From the IMG/VR virus record IMGVR_UViG_3300023205_000110: a stretch of 33,573 nucleotides of DNA, one strand, 5' to 3'. Origin of the DNA: an uncultured virus (IMG/VR IMGVR_UViG_3300023205_000110). Lineage: Duplodnaviria > Heunggongvirae > Uroviricota > Caudoviricetes > Crassvirales. The notes under the pieces are model-generated. The model did not search any database. It was given only the letters and a program-made list of their open reading frames with translations, and was not told the DNA's origin. Shown here in pieces: positions 3,879 to 18,972 of this stretch (the stretch's first letter is position 1; each line of letters opens with the position of its first letter). The position numbers were made by a program, and so were the translations under genes.

Positions 3879-4301
3879 TTATTTAACTAGTAAACAAACA
3901 ACAAAAGCGATAGCGCAAACAGCACCACCGCTTACCAAATATCTATTCTTACGTTTAATACGTTCAATAGACTTATTTAAATTATCATTTACTTTATTAC
4001 TATTATCAAGATTATTTTGTAAAGTTTCAACTTCTTTATAAAGAGCATTATATTTAATCTTATGGAGATTAATTATACTATCTTGTTCGTTAATAATATC
4101 TTTATAAAGTTTAGCTTTAATAATTTTAGTATTAGCAATCTTAATCATATTAATAGGAACAAGAACAGTTGTATCAGTAGCGTTGACTCCCCGTGGAGGA
4201 TGCACTACATTATCAATCTCACTCTGACACCAACTTCTTGAATAACTCCCAAGTAGCACTGTCATTAAGACTAATAACTTTATCTTCAATATCTTTTTCA
4301 T
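3879..4301 (-). CDS. Spanin-like protein (signal/lipobox-like N-terminus, coiled coil, C-terminal TM helix)
   Basis: Hydrophobic N-terminus followed by Cys, heptad-rich middle, C-terminal YLVSGGAVCAIAFVVCLLVK. Overlaps the 3' end of 4219-4497, next to the endolysin. Confidence 0.55.
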   Translation of the reverse strand: MKKILKIKLLVLMTVLLGSYSRSWCQSEIDNVVHPPRGVNATDTTVLVPINMIKIANTKIIKAKLYKDIINEQDSIINLHKIKYNALYKEVETLQNNLDNSNKVNDNLNKSIERIKRKNRYLVSGGAVCAIAFVVCLLVK

Positions 4302-4497
4302 GTTCTTTAAGTTTATAAACTATACTTTCTCTTTCAGTTATAACTAACTGTATAGAATCAATCCGAACATGATTAATAGCAGTGTCACTTTTATTATATG
4401 AATTGGCTTCTACACTAAAACGACTTATTGATAAATACAGAGTAACACATAAATTAATAATCGCTATTATAAATATTGCTATTAACATCTTCTTCAT
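4219..4497 (-). CDS. Membrane-anchored coiled-coil protein, i-spanin-like
   Basis: N-terminal TM (MLIAIFIIAIINLCVTLYLSI) followed by helical sequence. Immediately downstream of the endolysin. Confidence 0.55.
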   Translation of the reverse strand: MKKMLIAIFIIAIINLCVTLYLSISRFSVEANSYNKSDTAINHVRIDSIQLVITERESIVYKLKEHEKDIEDKVISLNDSATWELFKKLVSE

Positions 4498-4516
4498 AAT
4501 TCTATACAGTATTAAG

Positions 4517-4945
4517 TTAATCTTTTATTTCTATAAGTTTATTAAGCAAATCAAGGTTCCATCTACCAGTTTCTTTAAGTCCAAGAACTCTTTGAGCCAT
4601 CTTGATAGCTGCAACTTGACCACAATTCACGTTAGTATCAAATAATTGTTCAGCAACTCTCTGACTATTAAAATCATCAAGTTCAAATACATCCCAATAA
4701 CCTATTTTATACTTTTCCCAAACAAGTTTCTGAAGCTGAACGTCATTATCAAGCTTAGACTTAAACTCTTTACTACCAACAGTATAATGTTTCTTATAAG
4801 AATCAATCATAGTCCAACCTTGCCAAGTAGGATTATATTTACGACTGATACCTCTATAAGTTTCTCCACCAGCATCATCTTTATCGTTTACATAACCACC
4901 TTCTTTAATAGATAGTTTTTTAAAAGCATCTCCAAAGTAAGCCAT
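4517..4945 (-). CDS. Endolysin, glycoside hydrolase family 108
   Basis: EGGYVNDKDDAGGETYRGIS matches the GH108 EGGY(V/S)NxxxDxGGxTxxGI signature. FDTNVNCG motif also present. Confidence 0.9.
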   Translation of the reverse strand: MAYFGDAFKKLSIKEGGYVNDKDDAGGETYRGISRKYNPTWQGWTMIDSYKKHYTVGSKEFKSKLDNDVQLQKLVWEKYKIGYWDVFELDDFNSQRVAEQLFDTNVNCGQVAAIKMAQRVLGLKETGRWNLDLLNKLIEIKD

Positions 4946-12558: not shown

Positions 12559-13185
12559 ATGGTAAATTTTGATAATGTTACTAGTAATGTTCAATCTAAG
12601 CCTAGAAAGAAAACTATGGCTGAAAGTTTAGAAGAAGCTAAACAAGAAGGTAAACTTGTTGTTCCTGAAGAAGATACACAAGTTAATGCTGTTGTTAGTA
12701 GTGAAACTGTTCAGCCTAAGAATAAAGCTAGGAAGAAGAAACAAAGTAAAGTTCGTAAACAGGAAGAACAAACTACTGTTGTTAGTCAAGCTAATGAAGA
12801 TAATGATTTTAAAGATGCTAAGACTGATAAACGTGGTGTTCCTGTTGGGATTAATGTTCCTCAACATATTCTTGATGTAGTTTGTATTGTTAAATTCAAT
12901 GCTGCATTTAGACGTCATACTTCTCTTAATATTCTTCATGCTCTTGAAGATGATGGAAGAATATGTAATTCTAAAGGTGCTTATGTTGACTTCTTATGGA
13001 ATAAGTTTAGAGTTACTGCTGATGGTGGACTTCGTAGAGAATATAGATATACAGATGATTTATTCATTGATGCTTTAGTTAAAGCTCATGCTGATGTTGC
13101 TAGTGATAGTCAGCGAGTTATTGGTATTATGATTGATACTGAAACTGAACTTCATAAAAAGAATAAAGATTCTGAGGCTAGTTAA
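12559..13185 (+). CDS. Hypothetical protein
   Basis: 208 aa with a charged, disordered N-terminal half. Confidence 0.8.
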   Translation: MVNFDNVTSNVQSKPRKKTMAESLEEAKQEGKLVVPEEDTQVNAVVSSETVQPKNKARKKKQSKVRKQEEQTTVVSQANEDNDFKDAKTDKRGVPVGINVPQHILDVVCIVKFNAAFRRHTSLNILHALEDDGRICNSKGAYVDFLWNKFRVTADGGLRREYRYTDDLFIDALVKAHADVASDSQRVIGIMIDTETELHKKNKDSEAS

Positions 13186-13350
13186 GTTTGTAGTATAGAC
13201 TCCCCGTAGAGGATGGATAGTGCTGTTGAGCTTGTTAAAGCTAATTCTCATCTGCTTGCCATTTTTATCCATTTTGTTTATTGGGTTTGTTATAGTTAAC
13301 ACGTTGATGATAACTATCCTCTACTCGGAGTTTATTTTATATATAAAGAT

Positions 13351-13530
13351 ATGGAAAGAACTGATATTTATTTTGTTGAAGATGATACATATTTCAATAA
13401 TAATGTTGAAGGTGTTGAAATTCATGCAGAATGCCTAAGTCAAGATTTTGACGATATTGCTTGGGAACCAATAGTTAACGATAGTCCTATTGTTGACCCT
13501 GAAAATGATGTTTTTGGTTATTATGATTAA
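13351..13530 (+). CDS. Small, very acidic protein (59 aa)
   Basis: Read manually as MERTDIYFVEDDTYFNNNVEGVEIHAECLSQDFDDIAWEPIVNDSPIVDPENDVFGYYD. Ends 12 nt before the next gene. Confidence 0.7.
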   Translation: MERTDIYFVEDDTYFNNNVEGVEIHAECLSQDFDDIAWEPIVNDSPIVDPENDVFGYYD

Positions 13531-13542
13531 ATAAATAAAATT

Positions 13543-14115
13543 ATGGAAAATATTAATATTAAAGTTATTCTTGATGAAGTTTTTGGTAAATCTTGTGATA
13601 GTATTACTTGTGATACCTGTAAATATAAAGAAGATTGTAATCTTCTTAATAAATTCATTAATGATATTAAAGATAAAGGTTTATCTCCAGACCAATATGT
13701 TAGAGGTTTAGCTTTATTTGTATATGTTCTTAAAGAACAAAAATATATTAATGATTTTGGTAAAACTCAAGAAGATATTATTAAACTTGTTACTGAAGAT
13801 GGATTTGAACTTGATTGGCTTATTAATCGTTGGGATAGTATAATTGAAGATAAAGATATTCTTAAACCTATTATTGCTGTTTTTCCTAAATATGCTAAAG
13901 ATATGATTATTAATATTGTTGAAGCTAATACTAAAATTAATCATTTTATAAGTCAACATATTGTTGATAGTTCTTATAAAGAACGTAATGAAATTATTAA
14001 AATGGTTAATCAATCTGTTGATAATAATAAACAAGAGAATAAGTTTAAGAATGTTAGTGATGATGAAATTTATGCTGAACTTAAACGTAGAAAAGCAAAT
14101 AAATCTGCTAAATAA
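13543..14115 (+). CDS. Hypothetical protein with an N-terminal Cys cluster
   Basis: 190 aa containing CDSITCDTCKYKEDC. Confidence 0.8.
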   Translation: MENINIKVILDEVFGKSCDSITCDTCKYKEDCNLLNKFINDIKDKGLSPDQYVRGLALFVYVLKEQKYINDFGKTQEDIIKLVTEDGFELDWLINRWDSIIEDKDILKPIIAVFPKYAKDMIINIVEANTKINHFISQHIVDSSYKERNEIIKMVNQSVDNNKQENKFKNVSDDEIYAELKRRKANKSAK

Positions 14116-14457
14116 TCCCACATAATTTTGATTGTATTTCTAACACTATTGTCTGTGAAGATAATAGTATTATTTCACTTGCTGATGATGGAGGAATTGA
14201 ACTCCGAAACTATGATATTGTTATTATCCGTTTTAATTTCTAATTGTAACTTTTGTAATAGTACGGTCTGTGAAGATAGTGCTATTAATATTTATCATAG
14301 TCCAAGTGTTATATGTCATATTTGATTTGGTGTTAATAATGTTATTATTGATTGTGAAATTAGTAATAACAATGTCTGTGTCAAACATTTCGTTTTATAT
14401 GATTTCGTATTTGTAGTTTTGCCTAGCATTGTCTGTGAAGATAGTGCTAGGCTTTTT
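14116..14457 (+). ncRNA. Structured RNA array: four GUGA-tetraloop hairpins with U-rich spacers
   Basis: Hairpins at 14145-14168, 14256-14287, 14340-14371 and 14421-14452. Stems differ in sequence but keep pairing, with G-U wobbles on the + strand. The last is followed by TTTTT. Confidence 0.75.
14176..14308 (+). ncRNA. Type I hammerhead ribozyme
   Basis: Stem I CACUUG/CAAGUG, core CUGAUGA plus one extra U, stem II GGAG/CUCC, GAAA, stem III CUAUGAUA/UAUCAUAG, GUC cleavage triplet at 14300-14302. Confidence 0.85.
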
Positions 14458-14493
14458 AGTATGTATATTATTAACTTTAAATATATAATTAAA

Positions 14494-14856
14494 ATGGATA
14501 ATTATGATTCTTTTATTTTTGATGGTCTATTAGATAGATACATTGAAGAACAAGCTAAGTTTAAAAAAGGACAAGTAGTTTATATGGAATATACTTATCA
14601 ATATCATAATCAAACTAAGCTTGGTGTTTGTGTTGGTATTGTAACCGAAGTTGGAATTACTAAAATCGAACGTACAGTAGGTAATAATAAATATATTAAT
14701 TATCCTATTGTATATACTGTAACTCATGCTAAAGGTGTTAGTCGTTGTGTTAGTGAATGTAAACTTGGTTCTGTATCTGAACATATTCTTAAAGAACGTC
14801 TTAAACGTGATGGTAAGAATAATGAACAAAATGCAGAGCCTACTAGTAATGACTAA
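14494..14856 (+). CDS. Hypothetical protein (SH3/KOW-like pattern)
   Basis: Likely start is ATG 14494 (MDNYDSF). Contains KFKKGQVVYM...GIVTEV. Confidence 0.75.
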   Translation: MDNYDSFIFDGLLDRYIEEQAKFKKGQVVYMEYTYQYHNQTKLGVCVGIVTEVGITKIERTVGNNKYINYPIVYTVTHAKGVSRCVSECKLGSVSEHILKERLKRDGKNNEQNAEPTSND

Positions 14857-14880
14857 CTATTTATGTTCATAATACATTCA

Positions 14881-14973
14881 TAGATACGGTTCTTTTGCTC
14901 TCTGTTGAATTTTCATATATAATCTGATTAATCTATCACGATTAATATTGAGTTCAATACAGGGCAAAAGAAC
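14881..14973 (+). repeat. Intergenic element copy 1 (long hairpin with core TGATTAATCTATCACGAT)
   Basis: Arms GTTCTTTTGC (14889) / GCAAAAGAAC (ending 14973). The core recurs at 29636-29653. Confidence 0.7.
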
Positions 14974-15015
14974 TAGCTAATAAATGTTAAACTAAAAATT
15001 TAATACAGTTTTATT

Positions 15016-15588
15016 ATGAATTATATTACTTATAAACAAATTGATGGTACTATTACATCTGGATTTAAAGTTAAACTTTATGATATAGTTACTTTGAATA
15101 CTGGCTATTGGAAAGATAAACTTGCTATTGTTCTATATATTAATGAGGATAAAAAACAAATTAAAGTTCGTATTATTGAATGTGGTATGAACTTAACTCT
15201 TAAAGTTAAAGATGTTCAATTTGTTAATCATAATAATAGAACTGCTGCTCGTTCTTATATTGATTTATGTAATAAACTATCTAAAACCTTTCGTGATAAA
15301 TATACTGATAAACAGTATATAAAAGATAATTGGTTTACTGATAAGTTTATTATTAATGATATAACTGCTGATACTATTGCTAAAGGTATTGGTCAATATA
15401 TTACTAATACTGATAGTGATAGATATTCTGTTAGTGCTATTATGTGGCTTAGTGATATTAAAGATTATATAGATGCTTTACTTAAATATGGTGATTTTGA
15501 TTTTGTTGCTAAAGCATTTAAAATTTATAATATTACTGATACTAGATTTGAACTTATTCGTAAACTTTATCATTATTTCTATGATTGA
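15016..15588 (+). CDS. Hypothetical protein with a KOW-like N-terminal domain
   Basis: YDIVTLNTGYWKDKLAIVLYINEDKKQIKV fits the KOW pattern. Confidence 0.7.
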   Translation: MNYITYKQIDGTITSGFKVKLYDIVTLNTGYWKDKLAIVLYINEDKKQIKVRIIECGMNLTLKVKDVQFVNHNNRTAARSYIDLCNKLSKTFRDKYTDKQYIKDNWFTDKFIINDITADTIAKGIGQYITNTDSDRYSVSAIMWLSDIKDYIDALLKYGDFDFVAKAFKIYNITDTRFELIRKLYHYFYD

Positions 15589-18428: not shown

Positions 18429-18972
18429 AACTGTTGACGAATATATTGATTGTGCTAGATGTCCAAATCGTATATTTAATACAGGTAAATATATACAAGG
18501 TGGTAGAGGAAGTATTCATGGAGATGTTGTTTTCCTATTTCCTAGGGGTGATAGAAATTATTGTGAAGGTTATCAATTATTTACTGATATTGGTAATCTT
18601 TATGATGAATATTCTGGACGTAATAATACTGAAGATGTGTATATGACTTATAGTATTAAATGTGCTTGTTCTAATAATTATAATACATATCTTACCGCTA
18701 TTGATAAATGTCGTAATATTCTATGGAAAGAATTAGCTAGAATTAATTATAAGTATCTATTTATATTTGGTGATGCTTATCGTAGTATTAGTGATAATCC
18801 AATTCCTAGATTTATGGCTACTGGTGGTAAGTATATATTTAATAATTATTCTCCTCTTATTAAATTTAAAGATAATAATCTTTATCATGTATTTAAACAA
18901 CGTTTTGCTGATGATGTTAATTGGGTTACTAAAAATAGAAATAATTATGGATTAAATTATATAAATGATTAA
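18418..18972 (+). CDS. Uracil-DNA glycosylase-like protein (family 4 fold, divergent)
   Basis: CARC, GRGSIHGDVVFL, VYMTYSIKC, C..ILWKEL and YLFIFG motifs, but no GEAPG catalytic motif. Confidence 0.65.
   Translation: MASKTVDEYIDCARCPNRIFNTGKYIQGGRGSIHGDVVFLFPRGDRNYCEGYQLFTDIGNLYDEYSGRNNTEDVYMTYSIKCACSNNYNTYLTAIDKCRNILWKELARINYKYLFIFGDAYRSISDNPIPRFMATGGKYIFNNYSPLIKFKDNNLYHVFKQRFADDVNWVTKNRNNYGLNYIND

Follow-up and report, generated by a model that had tools for sequence, protein, structure and literature searches.

A probable type I hammerhead ribozyme in the gp08-gp09 gap of prototypical crAssphage, with compact homologues in two other crAss-like lineages

Prototypical crAssphage (p-crAssphage, Carjivirus communis) is extremely abundant in human stool and is the most abundant human gut phage, and since 2011 hammerheads have been known to occur between phage genes. 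Here we describe an element at positions 14176-14308, on the + strand, of a 33,573-nucleotide stretch of viral DNA (IMG/VR record IMGVR_UViG_3300023205_000110; the window, whose numbering is used throughout), in the gap between the genes gp08 and gp09. We read it as a genuine type I hammerhead self-cleaving ribozyme within the gp08-gp09 intergenic RNA and, on the comparative sequence evidence set out below, give that reading a probability of about 0.87. The motif itself, selection on it, its covariation and a + strand constraint at the level of RNA across the whole gap are established here. It is conservation together with covariation, and not the sequence alone, that settles the reality of the hammerhead: relatives of p-crAssphage keep the motif while the surrounding DNA diverges, and two other crAss-like lineages (lineages 2 and 3) carry it at the same gene gap with different stems. 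The RNA that carries the hammerhead is probably the 3' untranslated region of gp08, ahead of a terminator.

Results

Architecture of the element

Over 14100-14500 the window has 98.0% identity to positions 4244-4644 of BK010471.1, the prototypical crAssphage record, and 95-98% identity to eight more crAssphage records; at this level of identity we take the window to be p-crAssphage and the hammerhead site to lie in its gp08-gp09 gap. A preliminary description, made from the letters of the DNA, had reported a complete hammerhead here, and direct reading found its coordinates correct to the base. The three stems do pair perfectly (19 of 19 pairs are Watson-Crick, 6 + 4 + 9 with A15.1-U16.1 included), and the catalytic core is intact, with CUGAUGA at 14182-14188 and GAA at 14206-14208. 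The topology is type I, as had been proposed, helix I being open, stem II closed by 8 nucleotides (nt) and stem III by a 75-nt insert. In hammerhead numbering the element comprises C3-A9, an extra U, G10.1-C11.1, G12 A13 A14, A15.1-U16.1 and C17. Its parts are as follows; the counts refer to the 101-sequence alignment described in the next section.

14176-14308, + strand: complete type I hammerhead, by direct sequence reading
14176-14181, + strand: stem I 5' strand, CACUUG (CACTTG as DNA), read from the sequence; the outer pair C14176-G14308 covaries
14182-14188, + strand: catalytic core C3-A9, CUGAUGA (CTGATGA), invariant in 101/101 and the same in lineages 2 and 3
14189, + strand: extra U between A9 and G10.1, invariant in 101/101
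14190-14205, + strand: stem II, GGAG/CUCC (14190-14193/14202-14205), with the 8-nt loop GAAUUGAA; pair probability 0.92-0.97
14194-14201, + strand: stem II loop, GAATTGAA as DNA, read from the sequence
14206-14208, + strand: core G12 A13 A14 (GAAA at 14206-14209 when A15.1 is included), unchanged in 100/101
14209-14217, + strand: stem III 5' strand, A15.1 followed by CUAUGAUA (CTATGATA as DNA, 14210-14217); G14214-C14296 covaries
14218-14292, + strand: 75-nt insert closing stem III, variable in length and sequence among relatives
14293-14301, + strand: stem III 3' strand, UAUCAUAG (TATCATAG as DNA, 14293-14300) followed by U16.1, read from the sequence and the alignments
14302, + strand: C17, with predicted cleavage between 14302 and 14303 from its position in the motif
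14303-14308, + strand: stem I 3' strand, CAAGUG (CAAGTG), read from the sequence and the alignments

Stem III had also been described as ending in a whole spacer-plus-hairpin unit that belongs to the array around it, and this is borne out by the 78% identity of 14252-14287 to 14137-14172 (family D2).

Conservation and covariation among p-crAssphage relatives

Relatives were collected with gp09 as the bait rather than the ribozyme, giving 22 viral-contig loci and 80 metagenome loci; the latter are the best 80 of 274, with gp09 95-99% identical in all of them. Among BK010471 and the viral-contig loci, 21 of 21 with sufficient upstream sequence contain the motif; the truncated L006 and the unrelated L023 are not counted. 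The gp09-like sequence of L023 (44% identity over 41 residues) sits in an unrelated, G+C-richer coding region, and a match there to the permissive descriptor introduced below was dismissed as chance. The window and the 100 loci that cover the motif were aligned to give 101 sequences, 95 of which are distinct over 401 nt, and 58 bases (14176-14217 and 14293-14308) were treated as constrained.

All 58 constrained bases are identical to those of the window in 87 of the 101 sequences. Their mean pairwise diversity is 0.0076, about tenfold below that of their surroundings, 0.066-0.099 over the flanks and the remaining insert (0.067 and 0.076 for the two intergenic flanks, 0.099 for the non-hairpin insert). 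Sites with a minor allele count of at least 2 number 3 of 58 among the constrained bases compared with 122 of 320 elsewhere in the intergenic region (Fisher p = 9e-8), and the three consist of one compensatory pair and the cleavage-site base. The compensatory pair, G14214A with C14296U, replaces a stem III G-C with A-U in 7 of the 100 loci (L014-L017 and L019-L021); the same swap is present in L010, which starts too late for the 101-sequence alignment. L020 additionally carries C14176U and G14308A, a stem I change from C-G to U-A. At the cleavage-site base, 14302 (C17), there are 99 C, one A (L005), one U (L102) and no G. The A15.1-U16.1 pair (A14209-U14301) is invariant, and the G10.1-C11.1 pair (G14190-C14205) is kept in 100 of 101 sequences and is also G-C in lineages 2 and 3. 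Loop II is altered at its first base in L054. Alignment A2 has 43 distinct rows and shows both-side changes at four pairs, of which the hammerhead and the insert hairpin contribute two each; four such pairs were reached in 0 of 500 shuffles, and slid controls show none.

An open reading frame of 65 amino acids (14128-14325) overlaps the element. Within it 45 of 100 relatives have a 2-nt insertion and 7 of 100 a 5-nt deletion, and a coding role was rejected because these indels shift the frame.

Compact homologues in two other crAss-like lineages

Viral contigs were scanned for three patterns: the core plus stem II, the core plus GG...CC, and the core plus the loop II sequence. Lineage 2 (contigs of ~71-93 kilobases (kb), one of them complete with terminal repeats; loci L250-L253, L270 and L299) has the motif CACAUA-CUGAUGA-U-GGAC[GAAAUGAA]GUCC-GAA-ACUAUAA[2-5 nt]UUAUAGU-C-UAUGUG, with loops in square brackets. 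Lineage 3 (contigs of ~63-94 kb; loci L274, L275, L285, L287, L288 and L297) has CUCUAA-CUGAUGA-U-GGCU[GAAAUGAA]AGCC-GAA-ACAAGCA[3-4 nt]UGCUUGU-C-UUAGAG, which differs in all three stems and retains the core, the extra U and loop II GAAAUGAA. Loop III is only 2-5 nt in these two lineages, where the large insert is absent. The loop II consensus GAAWUGAA is common to all three lineages. Judged by these sequences, the elements are a small family, found at one and the same gene gap in three or more crAss-like lineages and marked by a canonical core, the extra U and loop II GAAWUGAA; the persistence of this loop while the stems change suggests that loop II has a role of its own.

Synteny was followed in the neighbouring proteins. 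The gp06 protein has 43% amino acid identity in both lineages, and in lineage 2 the values for gp10 and gp12 are 32-34% and 46%. The C-terminus of gp08 is recognisable in lineage 3, and no full-length homologue of gp08 was detected in lineage 2. For gp09 there is a weak N-terminal match only in lineage 2 (E 6e-4) and no match over 36 residues in lineage 3. When 2 kb of lineage 2 was compared by blastn, the single stretch that aligned with crAssphage (76-82 nt, 77-79% identity) was the upstream hairpin together with the 5' half of the hammerhead.

Covariation in relatives, offered in the preliminary description as a check, took the form of compensatory changes in all three helices. Alignment A4 has nine rows, five p-crAssphage haplotypes and four lineage 2 sequences, and in it both partners are changed in 5 of the 19 pairs (three belong to stem I and one each to stems II and III), with 0 one-sided changes. 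All 163 of its 163 cells are paired, whereas slid controls are 24-43% paired and have no both-side change. The fourth pair of stem II goes from G-C to C-G in lineage 2, and the outer stem I pair went from C-G to U-A in separate events in L020 and in L250 of lineage 2. In L270 and L299 one stem II pair each, a different one in the two loci, has become a G.U wobble and is still paired. Two further loci returned by the core plus stem II scan, L111 and L118, are not complete type I motifs and were set aside.

The extra U is common in phage hammerheads. Among 80 loci (L133-L212) matching CTGATGATGG...CCGAAA, 43 are complete three-stem type I hammerheads with the U, and 40 of the 43 are compact, at 51-68 nt.

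A covariance model, R1, was built solely from the six lineage 2 sequences (A6). It scored 54-62 bits on lineage 3 and 16-29 bits on three unrelated compact extra-U hammerheads, and on L020 it aligned the full hammerhead over a 71-nt insert at 60.9 bits. On the window (33.5 kb, both strands, E<=10) its sole match was 14173-14235, at 40.9 bits and E 1.7e-7; only the 5' two thirds were aligned, and the 3' part was mispaired even with filters off. This partial alignment may reflect a limit on hit length, the motif of the window being 7 nt longer than that of L020. Over whole records the model gave one significant match in each of the three lineages.

Chance expectation and model coverage

How often would such a motif arise by chance? 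A permissive descriptor (CTGANGA, 0-1 extra base, GAA, G-U pairs allowed, long loops and an insert of up to ~240 nt) matched the window seven times on the + strand, with 14176-14308 the best, and 0 times on the - strand. In dinucleotide shuffles of the window, stems of at least 6, 4 and 8 pairs (I, II and III) were reached in 2 of 3000, some match with all stems of at least 4 pairs occurred in 333 of 3000, and a summed stem length of 19 pairs was reached in 3 of 400. The motif is improbable for one window, and sequence alone is not convincing across a very large scan. Another of the seven matches, 18908-18965, has stems of 4, 4 and 6 pairs, U-A at 10.1-11.1 and a stem II of A+U only; its summed length was equalled in 48 of 400 shuffles, and we regard it as chance.

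Not one Rfam hammerhead model reports 14176-14308, in keeping with the warning in the preliminary description that searches limited in length could miss it. The whole window gave no match in Rfam 15 at the gathering score, and RF00163 had no match at E<=10 in the whole of BK010471. Rfam at E<=0.1 likewise reported 0 of 20 compact extra-U phage hammerheads, and a compact lineage 2 homologue reached a best score of 22.7 bits (RF03152) against a gathering score of 56.3. Because the compact extra-U hammerheads are missed too, the silence of Rfam on the site is a gap in model coverage and not a fault of the motif.

The intergenic RNA: hairpins, terminator and flanking genes

The hammerhead lies in a gap that also contains an array of GUGA-capped hairpins, one of them inside the stem III insert. 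The remaining features of the region are these.

13543-14115, + strand: gp08, hypothetical protein, the upstream gene (open reading frame; KP06_gp08 in BK010471)
14145-14168, + strand: hairpin 1, a 10-base-pair stem with a GUGA tetraloop (apical GUCU-GUGA-AGAU), from folding and covariation
14256-14287, + strand: hairpin 2, in the stem III insert, 9 base pairs with bulges and a GUCU-GUGA-AGAU tip, from folding and covariation
14340-14371, + strand: hairpin 3, a 14-base-pair stem with a GUGA loop, from folding and covariation
14421-14457, + strand: hairpin 4 (14421-14452, 14 base pairs, GUGA loop) followed by UUUUU, resembling an intrinsic terminator, from a terminator scan and covariation
14494-14856, + strand: gp09, hypothetical protein, the downstream gene (KP06_gp09 in BK010471)

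The stems of the hairpins vary in step. Across the 101 sequences, the hairpin 1 pair 14149-14164 is U-A in 46, C-G in 46 and U.G in 8, and its pair 14145-14168 is A-U in 93 and G-C in 6. The hairpin 3 pair 14341-14370 is G-C in 49, A-U in 23 and G.U in 21, and the hairpin 4 pair 14427-14446 is C-G in 70, U.G in 28 and U-A in 3. Hairpin 2 has both-side changes in L041 (G-C to U-A) and L046 (C-G to U-A), and three of its pairs have one-sided changes to G.U. The hairpin stems pass through frequent G.U pairs; read from the opposite strand these would be A.C, so it is the + strand RNA on which selection acts. These G.U intermediates are indirect evidence, and suggest that the gp08-gp09 gap is transcribed rightwards. 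Both flanking genes are on the + strand, as is the only terminator-like site found in 13000-15200, 14421-14457, where 0.2 were expected.

The tip GUCUGUGAAGAU is exact in three of the four hairpins, and the 12-mer occurs three times in the 97-kb genome, always in this gap and always on the + strand. The GUGA hairpins might act as terminators in tandem, stabilise the RNA or provide a binding site. In lineages 2 and 3 the layout is GNRA-capped hairpins, the hammerhead and then a GUGA-capped terminator ~35-45 nt before the gp09 start, and the hairpins are outside the ribozyme. The insert of p-crAssphage relatives is 68-77 nt long, and its part 14224-14239 is far less variable than the remainder. 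The simplest history, drawn from an unrooted comparison, would be that a spacer-plus-hairpin copy landed in loop III in the p-crAssphage lineage, because the hammerhead is compact in lineages 2 and 3, as it is in 40 of the 43 other extra-U cases.

In Rfam, two of the hairpins weakly match the 5' hairpin of the Bacteroides small RNA BTnc201, at 14417-14484 (26 bits, E 0.016) and 14137-14224 (15.3 bits, E 4.8), the gathering score being 105, and the model consensus contains the same apical guCuGUGAaGau. BTnc201 is also called MasB and affects how sensitive B. thetaiotaomicron is to tetracycline (PMC10994844). The likeness may be a coincidence, or the phage may hold a copy of a host RNA hairpin.

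A possible pairing of 14216-14239 with the gp09 start region at 14486-14508, which would mask the start site, has a predicted free energy of -17.2 kcal/mol, with 9 of 500 shuffles as good. It was abandoned as not conserved: the pairing is weaker in the sister clade (55/500 shuffles) and not significant in lineage 2 (68/500), and in lineage 3 the best partner of the gp09 start lies downstream of the ribozyme. Segment 14216-14239 lies upstream of the predicted cut, and cleavage would part it from the gp09 start.

The left arm around gp08 and gp09 also encodes SSB, a helicase and a uracil-DNA glycosylase. In tblastn searches of a phage collection, matches to gp08 and gp09 were confined to nine Carjivirus communis records. 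Among these records the gp08 protein is 88-96% identical, and the 401-nt stretch containing the gap is 95-98% identical as DNA; by this comparison gp08 evolves fast beside a constrained RNA.

Of 24 sequencing runs, all available as assembled contigs, four RNA-labelled ones (X1, X10, X12 and X13) were examined; contigs cannot show RNA ends. Neither joints nor accumulations of starts or ends were seen in them. Contigs break at 14103/14253 in X10 and at 14163/14164 in X12, and not at 14302/14303; the contig data are neither for nor against cleavage. In the gut run X10 the gp08 contig (13543-14103) has a word depth of 711 and the gp09 contig (14253-14856) a depth of 95, an inequality that hints at RNA rather than DNA.

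Discussion

A proposed mechanism

If the hammerhead works as others of its class do, a + strand transcript that extends past 14308 would allow stems I, II and III to assemble, and the 2'-OH of C14302 would attack the adjacent phosphate. The upstream RNA would then end in a 2',3'-cyclic phosphate, and the downstream RNA would begin with a 5'-OH at 14303. Given the layout of the gap, the gp08 message would be left with a structured 3' end made up of hairpin 1, stem II and the stem III/hairpin 2 block, and a tail of ~155 nt (14303 to ~14457) containing hairpin 3 and the terminator hairpin would be released. In transcripts that read through the terminator, the gp09 message would be cut from gp08 and would acquire a 5'-OH leader. 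The processing of a phage noncoding transcript, as put forward in the preliminary description, would on this view act on the gp08-gp09 intergenic RNA.

A more elaborate proposal, which we hold to be doubtful, is that the gap is a dedicated noncoding RNA unit, in which the hammerhead would cut out a 5'-OH, terminator-ended RNA bearing GUGA hairpins, and the hairpin tips would bind a host or phage factor that, in p-crAssphage, gates cleavage through the loop III hairpin. The small RNA would be ~155 nt in p-crAssphage and shorter in lineages 2 and 3, and the tips would be the part that weakly resembles the 5' hairpin of the Bacteroides small RNA MasB/BTnc201. Were this so, it would be a phage small RNA made and gated by a ribozyme and acting on the Bacteroides host.

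Alternative explanations

What else might explain a hammerhead-shaped, conserved RNA between gp08 and gp09? Several observations count against an active ribozyme at this site. The Rfam hammerhead families (RF00163, RF00008, RF02275-7 and RF03152) give no match in 14100-14500 even at E<=10. The preliminary description had named core- or stem-breaking substitutions in close relatives as a ground for rejecting the element; CUGAUGA proved unchanged in 101/101, and four singletons carry changes that should impair the motif. These are L065 (G10.1 to A), L041 (G14193A), L044 (lacking one A of GAAA, in a contig whose name states a coverage of 0.93) and L046 (lacking one U of stem III); they may be assembly errors or real defective variants. 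Stem III of L285, in lineage 3, has an A.C mismatch. The species-level sequences are closely related, and the independent events among them are few, about six. In the RNA-labelled runs, an X1 contig (14013-14337) and an X13 contig (the whole stretch) bridge the site, possibly through carry-over of DNA. A contact between helix I and loop II is required for fast hammerhead cleavage at low Mg2+; inspection by eye identified no stem I/loop II tertiary contact or pseudoknot here, which weighs on activity at cellular Mg2+, and a candidate extension of stem I (U14171-U14173 with A14311-A14313) failed on conservation, A14311 changing and its partner not. The 75-nt insert also delays the formation of stems III and I, and competitors of nearly equal energy exist in the folding model. 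With helices I-III enforced, the energy is within 0.2-0.4 kcal/mol of the unconstrained minimum free energy in three contexts, and the hammerhead fold makes up 0.11-0.32 of the ensemble, with no energy credit for tertiary structure; in a competing fold part of the core pairs with the stem III 3' strand.

These points could be gathered into the view that the RNA is hammerhead-shaped and weak or dead as a ribozyme, the extra U, the short open stem I and the long insert preventing useful self-cleavage in the cell, and that it serves as a structural element such as a block protecting a 3' end. We think this improbable. The lack of an identified stem I/loop II contact and of any score from Rfam would fit it, but structure alone would not fix CUGAUGA, GAA and a base other than G at position 17 across three lineages whose neighbouring proteins are 32-47% identical. 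The extra U also recurs in the 43 of 80 other phage loci that form complete hammerheads, and a U at this position is reported to raise the activity of a viroid hammerhead (PMC3705267). More improbable still, and to our minds barely credible, is a chance descriptor match in an A+T-rich gap whose conservation has some other cause, for example a DNA site, a short open reading frame or a different RNA fold. It is true that 2 of 3000 shuffled windows were as good under the permissive descriptor, and that a scan of very many windows must produce such matches somewhere. Against this stand the compensatory changes in all three helices with no broken pair in A4, the consistent avoidance of G at position 17, the frameshifting indels that rule out the overlapping reading frame, and the homologues with different stems and the same core at the same gene gap in two other lineages. 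A third possibility refines, rather than opposes, the reading of the site as a genuine self-cleaving hammerhead: the ribozyme would be conditional, with the loop III insert and the neighbouring GUGA hairpins gating its folding, either through a protein or RNA that binds the GUCU-GUGA-AGAU tips or through co-transcriptional competition. The conserved tip on a covarying stem, the restriction of its 12-mer to three copies in the gp08-gp09 gap of a 97-kb genome, the alternative folds so close in energy to the active one and the low variability of 14224-14239 all favour such control, and regulated cleavage is a possibility that Perreault et al. bring up for phage hammerheads and for those with large loops (PMC3088659). 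We nevertheless consider gating unlikely: the family does not need the insert, as lineages 2 and 3 keep their hairpins outside a compact hammerhead, the tips have no known binding partner, and GNRA caps are common on hairpins that do no more than add stability or terminate transcription.

Significance

The abundance of crAssphage sequences allowed selection and covariation to be read directly from 100 variants, and the conserved module of GUGA hairpins, ribozyme and terminator gives a well-defined context for experiments on the purpose of a phage hammerhead. Rfam 15 missed this site and every extra-U hammerhead tried against it, so that a sizeable set of phage hammerheads is probably unannotated; the 75-nt insert illustrates how length-limited searches can miss real members of the class.

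Comparison with known hammerheads

No mention of a hammerhead in crAssphage or crAss-like phages was found in the literature searched, a search that ran outside subscription journals and bioRxiv supplements. According to a passing remark in one preprint, hatchet ribozymes occur largely within Crassvirales. Type I hammerheads in the intergenic regions of phages and prophages are an established class (Perreault et al. 2011, PMC3088659), proposed there, as a hypothesis, to cut long transcripts into shorter units. Those phage hammerheads resemble the present one in catalytic core, three-helix junction, open helix I, intergenic site on the coding strand and proposed role; the p-crAssphage element differs from them in its structured stem III insert of 68-77 nt and its extra U, and no pseudoknot or loop-loop contact was identified in it. 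Short strings from its stem II and core are absent from the text supplementary files of PMC3088659, a weak test given that the printed alignments contain gaps.

The closest relatives are the compact extra-U phage hammerheads and those of lineages 2 and 3, which share the order CUGAUGA-U-stem II-GAAA-stem III-H-stem I. Lineages 2 and 3 further share loop II GAAWUGAA, the gene gap, the GUGA hairpins and the GUGA-capped terminator. The compact extra-U hammerheads differ in their length of 51-68 nt and in closing stem III with just a few bases, the large insert being found only in p-crAssphage. RAGATH-1 (RF03152) is the best Rfam model on lineage 2 and aligns stem I, the core and stem III correctly, but it has another stem II region and an upstream hairpin in the model, and it has no match in the window.

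In the mouse discontinuous hammerhead the interrupted helix is helix I, and the ribozyme is located in a 3' untranslated region. A large-loop, discontinuous mammalian hammerhead of this kind is mentioned in the Discussion of PMC3088659; it is like the crAssphage element in that a long sequence interrupts one helix of a canonical hammerhead and invites control of folding, and unlike it in organism and in having no sequence relation.

The preliminary description had held that an extra base between A9 and G10.1 is tolerated in nature, and published hammerheads agree. The CChMVd (+) hammerhead has A10, and a U there makes trans-cleavage 3-4 fold faster (PMC3705267, citing De la Pena and Flores 2001); Penelope-like-element hammerheads also keep a base between A9 and G10.1 (PMC4209133). 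The likeness lies in the one added base and in the compatibility with cleavage of a U, which in CChMVd constructs improved it. The settings are different, those hammerheads belonging to a viroid and to eukaryotic retroelements, with rolling-circle or retroelement biology, and this one to the messenger of a double-stranded DNA phage. Set beside these systems, the p-crAssphage element is a new instance of a common but Rfam-invisible kind of hammerhead, the extra-U type I, in which the large structured loop III insert is unusual and of which the class is already known.

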